Part shown: positions 38,551 through 42,956 of the stretch, piece after piece
Layout of the letters: the number at the start of each line of letters is the position of its first letter
Position numbering within the stretch: position 1 is the first letter of the stretch
Origin: Escherichia coli
GTDB taxonomy: Bacteria > Pseudomonadota > Gammaproteobacteria > Enterobacterales > Enterobacteriaceae
Reading direction: 5' to 3' (one strand)
DNA: 64,000 bases
Assembly (NCBI RefSeq): GCF_011045215.1
Contig: NZ_CP049201.1
Made by a program: the position numbers and the translations under genes
The notes under the pieces: generated by a model
Database searches by the model: none
Told to the model about the DNA's origin: nothing
The model's input: only the letters and a program-made list of their open reading frames with translations

Positions 38551-40749
38551 TTATCTCCTGCGCAACAATCTTAACGCATTCGCTGTCACCAGCACCGTCG
38601 CACCCGTATCTGCCAGCACCGCCAGCCATAGTCCGGTCATTCCTAACAGCGTGGTGACGAGGAAGATCCCTTTCAGCCCCAGCGCAATAGTGATGTTCTG
38701 GCGGATATTGGCGTGAGTGGCGCGTGCCAGTTCAATCATTTGCACCAGACCGCGCAGGTGGTTATGGGTTAATGCTGCGTCGGCGGTTTCCAGCGCCACG
38801 TCTGTGCCGCTGCCCATTGCAATCCCGATGGCGGCAGCTTTCATCGCTGGCGCGTCGTTAATACCGTCACCGACCATCGCCAGCGGCGCATGTTGATTCA
38901 GCTCGGTCACCGCTTTGACTTTATCTTCCGGCAACAGGCCCGCTTTAAACTCCAGCCCCAGCTCCCCGGCGATTGCCGCCGCAGCGCGTGGATTATCGCC
39001 GGTGAGGATCACTCCTTTAACCCCCAGCGCGTTCAGTTCACTGATGGCAGTTGCAGCGTCGGCGCGCAGGGTATCCTGTAACGCAATGACACCAAGCACG
39101 TCATCGTTACGTACTACCAGCACTACCGTTTGCCCGGCGCTTTCCAGTTCGTTAATTAAACCAGCAAATGCATCAGCGGGATGTTTCCCGGCAGCGCAAA
39201 TCAATACGCGCTCACCGTTAACCTGCGCTTCAATGCCAGACCCGACCAGCGCCCGCTGTGATTCGGCGGCGGGAATGGCGAGTGCAGCAACCTGTGCTTC
39301 GCGCACGATGGCCTGCGCCAGTGGATGCGTCGCGCCTTGCTCGACCGCCGCCGCCAGTGTCAGCAGTTCAGATTCACTAATACCCGTTGCCGGATGAATC
39401 GCGGTAACGCGCGGTTTACCGACGGTCAGCGTACCGGTTTTATCAAACGCCACCTGGGTAACACGACCTAGCTGCTCCAGCGCCGCACCGCCTTTAATTA
39501 ACGCCCCACGACGTGCCGCTGCTGCCAGCCCGGAGGTAATCGCCGCGGGCGTGGAGATAACTAACGCACACGGGCAGCCAATCAGCAGCAGCGTCAGGCC
39601 TTTATAAATCCACTCTTGCCAGCTGGCGGCAAACAGCAGCGGCGGCACCAGCGTTACCAGCAGGGCGACGGCCATAATCGCTGGCGTATAAATACGGCTG
39701 AAACGGTCGATAAACCGCTCAATGGGAGCGCGACGCTCTTCGGCTTCTTCGATCAGTTTCAGAATCCGGTCAATGGCGCTGGCTCCCGGTTCGGACAATA
39801 CTTCCAACGTCACCAGACGGTCTACGCTGGTGGCGCCTGCAGGAACTTTATCGCCCGTCGCACGCTCCACCGGAATGGATTCGCCGGTCAGGGCGCTTTC
39901 ATCAAAACTGGCAAAGGGTGAGAGCAGTTTACCGTCGGCAGGCAAACGCCCACCCGCCGCAACTTCAATCACATCGCCAGGGCGCAGGCTGTTAATTGCC
40001 ACCTCTTCACGCTCACCGTTACGCAGGCGCGTGGCGTTTTCTGGTTTCAGCGCCATTAACGCGCTGACGCCCTGACGCGCGCGGCTGGCGGCCCAACCTT
40101 CTAGTCGTTCACCAATCAAAAACAGCAGCAACACCATCGCAGCTTCAGCCGTTGCGCCAATAAACAGCGCACCAATAGCGGCTACGCTCATTAACGTTTC
40201 AATGGCGAAGTAACTGCCTGATTTGATCAGCCGTAATGCCTGACGAGCAATCGGGTACAGCCCAACCAGCGTGGTCGCGATAAACGCCAGTTGCCCGAAC
40301 GGATGATTGAACTGCTCCAGACCCCAGCTGATTGCCATCATCACGATTAGCGTAATCAGCGGCAGATTCTCTTTCAGGCGCGATTCTTGTTGTTCTTCGG
40401 CGGCCTGTTCATCGCGTAGGGAATAGCCCGCTTTTTGCACCGCAGATTCAACCTGGGCACGGATGTCATTGTCGGCATCCACCACCAGTTTTTCGGTGGC
40501 GAACAACACCTGCACCTGATTCACGCCTGCAAGCTGGCGCACGGCGTTTTCTACCTTGCGCGCACAGGCGGCGCAGTCCATGCCGCTGACTTTCCAGCTA
40601 TAGCGGGTGCCGGAGACGTTTTCAGAGAGCGTTGGCGTGCTGGAACATGCGCCGTCGCAGCAACAGTCGTTGGCGTTCTGTACCGTGGTTAGCGGTTTGA
40701 ACGCAGCAAATTGAGGGGCTTTCTTGCCGTGATTGTCAGGAGTCGACAT
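38551..40749 (-). CDS. zntA: Zn/Cd/Pb-exporting P1B-type ATPase
   Basis: 732 aa; N-terminal Cys-rich stretch and GMDCAAC metal-binding motif, CPC motif, DKTGT phosphorylation site. Confidence 0.92.
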   Translation of the reverse strand: MSTPDNHGKKAPQFAAFKPLTTVQNANDCCCDGACSSTPTLSENVSGTRYSWKVSGMDCAACARKVENAVRQLAGVNQVQVLFATEKLVVDADNDIRAQVESAVQKAGYSLRDEQAAEEQQESRLKENLPLITLIVMMAISWGLEQFNHPFGQLAFIATTLVGLYPIARQALRLIKSGSYFAIETLMSVAAIGALFIGATAEAAMVLLLFLIGERLEGWAASRARQGVSALMALKPENATRLRNGEREEVAINSLRPGDVIEVAAGGRLPADGKLLSPFASFDESALTGESIPVERATGDKVPAGATSVDRLVTLEVLSEPGASAIDRILKLIEEAEERRAPIERFIDRFSRIYTPAIMAVALLVTLVPPLLFAASWQEWIYKGLTLLLIGCPCALVISTPAAITSGLAAAARRGALIKGGAALEQLGRVTQVAFDKTGTLTVGKPRVTAIHPATGISESELLTLAAAVEQGATHPLAQAIVREAQVAALAIPAAESQRALVGSGIEAQVNGERVLICAAGKHPADAFAGLINELESAGQTVVLVVRNDDVLGVIALQDTLRADAATAISELNALGVKGVILTGDNPRAAAAIAGELGLEFKAGLLPEDKVKAVTELNQHAPLAMVGDGINDAPAMKAAAIGIAMGSGTDVALETADAALTHNHLRGLVQMIELARATHANIRQNITIALGLKGIFLVTTLLGMTGLWLAVLADTGATVLVTANALRLLRRR

Positions 40750-40791
40750 GGCATCCTCCGGTTAAGTTTTTTCTCATTAACCGAAGGATAC

Positions 40792-40813
40792 ACTCTGGAG
40801 TCGACTCCAGAGT
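40792..40813 (-). promoter_or_regulatory. ZntR (MerR-family) operator within the zntA promoter
   Basis: Perfect 22-bp palindrome ACTCTGGAGTCGACTCCAGAGT, 43 bp upstream of the zntA start. Confidence 0.8.
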
Positions 40814-40822
40814 CAAGTTTTA

Positions 40823-41449
40823 TCAGAGATACAGCGAGCGGACGATGAGGAAGTGACCGGCAAAGTAGCAGGCCGCAGCAATCGCGTTATCCGCACGGAA
40901 GCGTCGGCGATAGTGGCTACCCAGCCAGACAAAGTTACTGATAAACAGCAACGAAGCGCCGACAAACGCAGAGAGTGCCGGAGCGGTCGGACGGAAGAAC
41001 CACAGTTCACCTGCCAGCCACACCATCACCAGCGTCATGCCGATAAACGTGCAGATAGGCCAACGATACTCTTCCAGCCGCGTCCAGATAATCGCCAGTA
41101 ACAGCGCGCCCAGAACCAGCAGTACCAACGGCAGAGGCCAGAAGAAAGAGAGCGTCATCTGACTGGCGAAATAGATGGTGTACAGCAGGTGCGAGAGGAA
41201 AAACGCGCCGATGGCGTACATCAGACGTTGACGTGGCAACAGGGTTAGCGCATCGCCCAGCAGTGAGGCGCACAGCCCTGCCAGCACCAGATAGCTAATG
41301 GCGTCGAACATCGGCGCTTGCCAGGCCAGTAACAACAGGAGAAGAAGGGTTAACGGTTTAAACACCCAGCGTTGCCAGGTTGGCCCACGATACGATGCAT
41401 CCACAGATAGCCATGCGGAAAGACAGACAGCGATAAACGACCAAAGCAT
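40823..41449 (-). CDS. yhhN: YhhN-family membrane protein
   Basis: 208-aa polytopic ORF in the conserved position. Confidence 0.85.
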
Positions 41450-42807: not shown

Positions 42808-42956
42808 GATAAATTGCTCAATCCGCCAGATAACACATACTTGCAGGCGGTGATGTGAATTAAGTTAAGTGATAGACTATTTCATCATTTTTTTAGCTGC
42901 TATGTACATAGCGTTAACGCTGTGCCATGAAGCAACAGCGAGGAGTGTAGTCGCAA

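Follow-up and report, generated by a model that had tools for sequence, protein, structure and literature searches.

The window analysed here, a stretch of 64,000 nucleotides (64 kb), belongs to the chromosome of Escherichia coli and carries the gene order ftsY-rsmD-yhhL-yhhM-yhhN-zntA-tusA; RefSeq annotates a 100%-identical region as ftsY / rsmD-yhhL / yhhM / yhhN-zntA / tusA / yhhQ-dcrB. Two genes frame the site of interest:

38551..40749, minus strand: zntA, the regulated gene, encoding a Zn(II)/Cd(II)/Pb(II)-translocating P1B-type ATPase of 732 aa (ORF, NF033775, RefSeq annotation)
40823..41449, minus strand: yhhN, encoding a YhhN-family membrane protein annotated as lysoplasmalogenase (ORF, PF07947 at 160.6 bits, RefSeq annotation)

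The zntA product matched the NCBIfam model NF033775 (P_type_ZntA) over its full length (732/732) with 1449.7 bits, against a cut-off of 1240. Its upstream neighbour on the same strand is yhhN, with 6 nt separating the end of the yhhN stop codon from the -35 hexamer of the zntA promoter (40817-40825). The initial annotation described a palindrome upstream of zntA, which is true on the minus strand, because zntA occupies 38551-40749 of that strand.

The regulator proposed for this site is probably encoded elsewhere. A tblastn search of the 64-kb window revealed no ZntR-like ORF (best E = 3.2), using as query a ZntR sequence of which residues 43-141 are identical to PDB 1Q08; since the zntR gene is absent from the window, ZntR would act in trans. 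There were also 0 matches to Rfam families at gathering score across positions 1-64000.

A 22-bp palindrome and its probability by chance

Window positions 40792-40813 read ACTCTGGAGTCGACTCCAGAGT, a gapless palindrome of 22 bp identical to its own reverse complement, and both the sequence and the coordinates given in the initial annotation were recovered exactly. An exhaustive count of gapless palindromes in the 64-kb window yielded eleven of 12 bp, two of 14 bp and one of 22 bp, leaving ACTCTGGAGTCGACTCCAGAGT as the sole example longer than 14 bp, and no further copy of it was present in the window at up to 3 mismatches. Elsewhere, at 42899-42921 in the divergent rsmD/ftsY intergenic region, the perfect palindromes GCTATGTACATAGC (14 bp) and AGCGTTAACGCT (12 bp) overlap each other.

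The chance expectation for gapless palindromes of at least 22 bp in 64 kb is approximately 64,000 x 4^-11 = 0.015, and 5 of 200 first-order Markov re-simulations produced one. At about 2% per window, the length of the palindrome is by itself moderately improbable, which is suggestive but not decisive. One alternative is that the symmetry arose by chance or marks an unrelated site, for example a cruciform, a recombination site, a sequence bound by a different dimeric regulator, or no more than a SalI site (GTCGAC) whose flanks happen to be symmetric. This explanation draws on the fact that some 2% of random 64-kb sequences hold a gapless palindrome of at least 22 bp, so that about one would be expected by chance over a 4.6-Mb genome. 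Length is, however, only part of the evidence: ACTCTGGAGTCGACTCCAGAGT is non-random because it sits in a promoter spacer, with the zntA ATG 43 nt downstream, and because it is conserved, and with the observations described below we consider a chance or unrelated origin extremely improbable.

Architecture of the zntA promoter

Read on the minus strand, the region from the yhhN stop codon to the zntA start codon is ...TGA TAAAAC TTGACT CTGGAGTCGACTCCAGAGTG TATCCT TCGGTTAATGAGAAAAAACTTAACC GGAGG ATGCC ATG, and contains the following elements of PzntA:

40811..40816, minus strand: -35 hexamer TTGACT (sequence; published -35, PMC3431237; 105/106 loci among the matches listed)
40791..40810, minus strand: spacer of 20 bp (counted; PMC1526738, PMC7911910, PMC3431237)
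40785..40790, minus strand: -10 hexamer TATCCT (sequence; TAnnnT in 101/106 species loci among the matches listed)
40792..40813, minus strand: ZntR operator, palindrome ACTCTGGAGTCGACTCCAGAGT, a 10-2-10 dyad with central CG (sequence; PMC1526738 consensus; cross-species core)
40755..40759, minus strand: putative Shine-Dalgarno GGAGG, 5 nt before the zntA ATG (read from the sequence)

The dyad fills the gap between a good to strong -35 (TTGACT) and a weak -10 (TATCCT), and ends 43 nt upstream of the zntA ATG at 40749. It shares its first three bases (ACT) with the end of the -35 hexamer and stops 1 base before the -10 hexamer. The placement of the palindrome within the -35/-10 spacer, as first proposed, is accordingly correct for 19 of its 22 bp, with the remaining 3 bp overlapping the -35 hexamer. 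The two hexamers do flank the palindrome (TTGACT at 40816-40811, TATCCT at 40790-40785), as opposed to the palindrome lying outside the promoter spacer. The spacing between -35 and -10 is 20 bp compared with an optimum of 17 bp, and RNA polymerase would be expected to engage both hexamers poorly because the gap exceeds the optimum by 3 bp. A generic sigma-70 promoter scan found no promoter at the zntA site, an expected and uninformative null given that the scan permits only spacers of 16-18 bp.

Comparison with published ZntR and MerR-family promoters

The consensus of ZntR sites has been published, 'within a 20 bp promoter spacer' (Permina et al. 2006, PMC1526738), and ACTCTGGAGTCGACTCCAGAGT was identical to it at 22 of 22 bases. 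This letter-for-letter match, together with the full-length ZntA gene downstream, bears out the assignment of the palindrome as the ZntR binding site, and an exact match to the published consensus also argues against a chance palindrome. The comparison with the published zntA promoter that the initial annotation had proposed gave agreement in both the -35 and the spacing: Hobman and co-workers reported TTGACT as the -35 of PzntA and a spacing of 19 bp for MerR-family promoters 'except ZntR (20 bp)' (PMC3431237), and a PzntA spacer of 20 bp was also given in PMC7911910, along with the observation that E. coli zntR is unlinked to zntA. The literature is in conflict on this length; a study from 2022 equated the ZntR binding site with the spacer but stated 19 bp (PMC9189660), versus 20 bp in PMC1526738, PMC7911910 and PMC3431237, and our own count is 20 bp. 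The 2022 study measured a transition from repression at low zinc to approximately 10-fold activation at high zinc (PMC9189660). DNase I protection by ZntR resembles that by MerR and CueR (cited in PMC3431237), and a published ZntR footprint on PzntA DNA, as reported there, further weakens the case for a chance or unrelated site.

The site shares with the PzntA/ZntR operator of E. coli K-12 the 22-bp palindrome, TTGACT, the 20-bp spacer, TATCCT, zntA downstream and yhhN upstream; the two represent one locus in different E. coli strains, with no detectable difference. Since 1999, the ZntR site of PzntA has served as a textbook case of how MerR-type regulators activate by distorting DNA, and zinc and cadmium biosensors make use of it; the primary work is reportedly that of Brocklehurst et al. 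1999 (Mol Microbiol) and Outten et al. 1999 (JBC). The zntA operator had already been described, in keeping with its labelling as known biology in the initial annotation, and the presence of a ZntR operator in the zntA promoter is an already known and ordinary finding. Its value is that of a positive control, in which sequence alone sufficed to name a regulatory element along with the corresponding regulator and target gene, with exact coordinates.

Other MerR-family systems follow the same plan. PmerT-MerR of Tn501/Tn21 and PcopA-CueR of E. coli share with zntA a dyad operator placed between -35 and -10 hexamers that are separated by an over-long spacer, activation proceeds by DNA distortion in PmerT-MerR, PcopA-CueR and PzntA-ZntR (PMC9909328), and the -35 TTGACT of PzntA is common to PmerT and PpbrA (PMC3431237). 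The systems differ, however, in spacer length, zntA having 20 bp where the mer, copA and pbrA promoters have 19 bp (PMC1526738, PMC3431237), and in the operator itself, with the CueR dyad ACCTTCCC-(5)-TGGAAGGT (PMC1526738) being distinct from the ZntR dyad. They also differ in the location of the regulator gene, which is adjacent and divergent in mer and pbr, whereas E. coli zntR is unlinked (PMC7911910).

Proposed mechanism

We consider it almost certain that ZntR, the zinc-responsive regulator of the MerR family, uses ACTCTGGAGTCGACTCCAGAGT as its operator within the sigma-70 promoter of zntA, with a mechanism that is in part taken from the literature. None of the observations from sequence, annotation or conservation contradicted this reading. 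According to published work, a ZntR dimer would occupy the dyad, and in the metal-free (apo-) state the promoter would be off or weakly repressed. Once loaded with Zn(II), or also with Cd(II) or Pb(II), ZntR would underwind and kink the centre of the operator, a form of DNA distortion that has been reviewed for the MerR family (PMC9909328). Such a distortion would shorten the path between the -35 and -10 hexamers and re-phase them, allowing RNA polymerase to form an open complex and leading to more transcription of the zinc-export ATPase ZntA. We infer that this switch would operate unchanged in the present strain, given that it shares its core promoter with essentially all E. coli.

Conservation within E. 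coli

Of 5,426 complete E. coli genomes, 5,413 carry the 32-bp segment from the -35 to the -10 hexamer without a single difference (100% identity). A wider segment of 301 bp around the palindrome had a match in 5,425 of the 5,426, chromosomal every time, with the best matches (100% identity) in O157:H7 and other strains, and was merely 95-99% identical in 2,570 E. coli genomes. Invariance of the site in 5,413 genomes, alongside flanks that do vary, is not what would be expected of a palindrome that arose by chance.

Conservation across species

To look beyond E. coli, the pattern CTCTGGAGTNNACTCCAGAG, which corresponds to palindrome positions 2-21 with the centre left free, was scanned against one genome per species. 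At least 120 loci were returned, with about 4 chance matches expected in 298 Gb. Among the matches listed, most were from Enterobacteriaceae and Erwiniaceae (including Citrobacter, Enterobacter, Klebsiella, Salmonella, Kluyvera, Pantoea, Erwinia), in addition to Providencia. The dyad pointed toward a ZntA homologue at 106 loci among the matches listed, one per species, and the distance to this gene was at most 400 nt and typically 44-50 nt at these 106 loci; at six more enterobacterial loci among the matches listed, the contig ends on the zntA side. Because loci entered the cross-species sample by virtue of the dyad core, the comparison is a test of the promoter flanks and of gene context, not of the core; for the core to be conserved outside E. 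coli, the evidence is the number and taxonomic breadth of the matches and not an unbiased rate.

The promoter elements TTGAC, the 20-bp spacing and TAnnnT all lie outside the CTCTGGAGTNNACTCCAGAG search pattern. Among the matches listed, the 20-bp spacing was fixed in 106/106 oriented loci, TTGACT was present in 105/106 (TTGA columns at 99-100%), and a TAnnnT -10 was present in 101/106, with T at position 6 in 100%. Over the same 106 listed loci, the outermost palindrome bases were A1 in 100% and T22 in 93%, the base before the -10 hexamer was G in 98%, and the TA of the -10 reached 95-100%; the top base of the flanking columns averaged 44-49%. This fixed position of the dyad relative to the -35, the -10 and zntA in 106 species among the matches listed also speaks against chance. 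At the other end of the promoter, the gap from the yhhN stop codon to the zntA -35 was 4-11 nt in most of 108 species loci among the matches listed.

The centre of the site is less constrained, with 11 variants of the central dinucleotide and CG in 58/106 species among the matches listed. The perfect 22-bp form put forward initially therefore applies to E. coli and its close relatives (58/106 species among the matches listed), but the two central bases vary elsewhere, and because they vary freely across species, the functional unit is a 10-2-10 dyad. The SalI site is incidental for the same reason, as the central two bases of GTCGAC vary (11 dinucleotides among the matches listed). The cross-species comparison thus makes a small addition to the known biology, namely a 10-2-10 dyad kept at a constant distance from TTGACT and TAnnnT, with its central two bases free.

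A possible RNA hairpin between yhhN and zntA

The palindrome could also act as an RNA hairpin, either as an intrinsic terminator or as a 3'-end stabiliser of yhhN, and this role might replace or add to that of an operator. Like a Rho-independent terminator, the site would form a G+C-containing perfect hairpin right after a stop codon: the zntA-sense RNA is predicted to fold into a 9-bp stem, which contains G+C, with a 4-nt loop, and a 71-nt segment around the hairpin gave a minimum free energy of -17.9 kcal/mol (z-score -2.44). There is moreover no room for another terminator between yhhN and PzntA, with a gap of 4-11 nt in most species among the matches listed, and a consensus terminator scan marked the palindrome as terminator-like. 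That call was, however, limited to the plus strand (tail CAAGTTTTAT), and no gene enters from that side. On the strand of yhhN and zntA the hairpin is followed by GTGTATCCTT, which lacks the U-tract of a Rho-independent terminator, and the next 10 nt after the hairpin contain only 2-3 T in 94/106 species among the matches listed. Conservation around the dyad extends to the promoter hexamers and their fixed spacing, not to a tail. A transcriptome (array) study of Y. pestis treated yhhN-zntA as one co-expressed unit (PMC2231364), which points to read-through as opposed to termination.

A terminator of yhhN was consequently rejected, with the minus strand devoid of a U-tract and the plus-strand match devoid of an incoming gene, and we regard a hairpin function in general as very unlikely. 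Because no canonical terminator separates the two genes, transcription of yhhN probably continues through the operator into zntA.

Possible wider roles of the operator

The ZntR operator reading may extend further, to an operator that has a second, previously undescribed role near the yhhN stop codon and that forms, with its regulator, a pair of greater age and wider occurrence than a proteobacterial distribution would imply; we view this extended version, taken as a whole, as unlikely. The second role is suggested by the conserved position of the operator 4-11 nt after the yhhN stop codon, where bound ZntR or the transcribed hairpin might insulate zntA from yhhN read-through, or might provide a zinc-dependent coupling of the two genes.

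The second element stems from ZntR-type dyads of the form CTCTGGAGT-NN-ACTCCAGAG that were observed at five loci in metagenome-assembled genomes (MAGs) of Acidobacteria, Bryobacterales and Gemmatimonadetes among the matches listed:

L004, 102-121: dyad
L063, 5559-5578: dyad
L041, 11438-11457: dyad
L051, 4496-4515, minus strand: dyad
L011, 3868-3887, minus strand: dyad

A TTGAC -35 was present at all five, and TGTA was found on the -10 side in 4/5 (TTAG in L011). In the Acidobacteria and Gemmatimonadetes MAGs, the promoter again has a spacer of 20 bp. In each case the dyad lies directly upstream of a gene for a MerR-family regulator, and these regulators were 34-43% identical to ZntR, with residues of the DNA-binding domain, C79 and C124 kept; in L051 the regulator gene is followed by that of a MerT/HMA-domain protein. 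This layout is cis-encoded and probably autoregulated, unlike that of E. coli. That distant phyla carry the same dyad beside ZntR-like MerR genes is difficult to reconcile with an unrelated site, and suggests, at the level of sequence, that the operator-regulator pair may have a greater age and a wider range than the proteobacterial distribution given in a comparative-genomics study (PMC1526738), with autoregulation in the MAGs.

Three further matches differed in context from the enterobacterial loci. In Alkalimonas amylolytica (L029, 6034-6053), the dyad is accompanied by TTGACT, a 20-bp spacing and TATACT, and the gene downstream is not zntA; the promoter is followed by an unannotated ORF of 124 aa and an ORF with a CopC domain. 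A homologue of ZntR (49% identical) is encoded at 8246-8644, about 2.2 kb downstream. This locus may represent an additional member of a ZntR regulon. A dyad core in L094 (1871-1890) lies between T-runs (tttttttggaCTCTGGAGTGCACTCCAGAGttttttt), without TTGAC or ZntA context and with a MerR-like ORF about 3.4 kb away, and may be a terminator or a chance match. Finally, an enterobacterial or Erwinia-type PzntA (TTGACTCTGGAGTCCACTCCAGAGTGTAGCAT) was observed at 121-140 of a 257-bp low-coverage contig (L072) in the assembly of Paenarthrobacter aurescens TC1, and its presence in an actinobacterial assembly most likely reflects assembly contamination.
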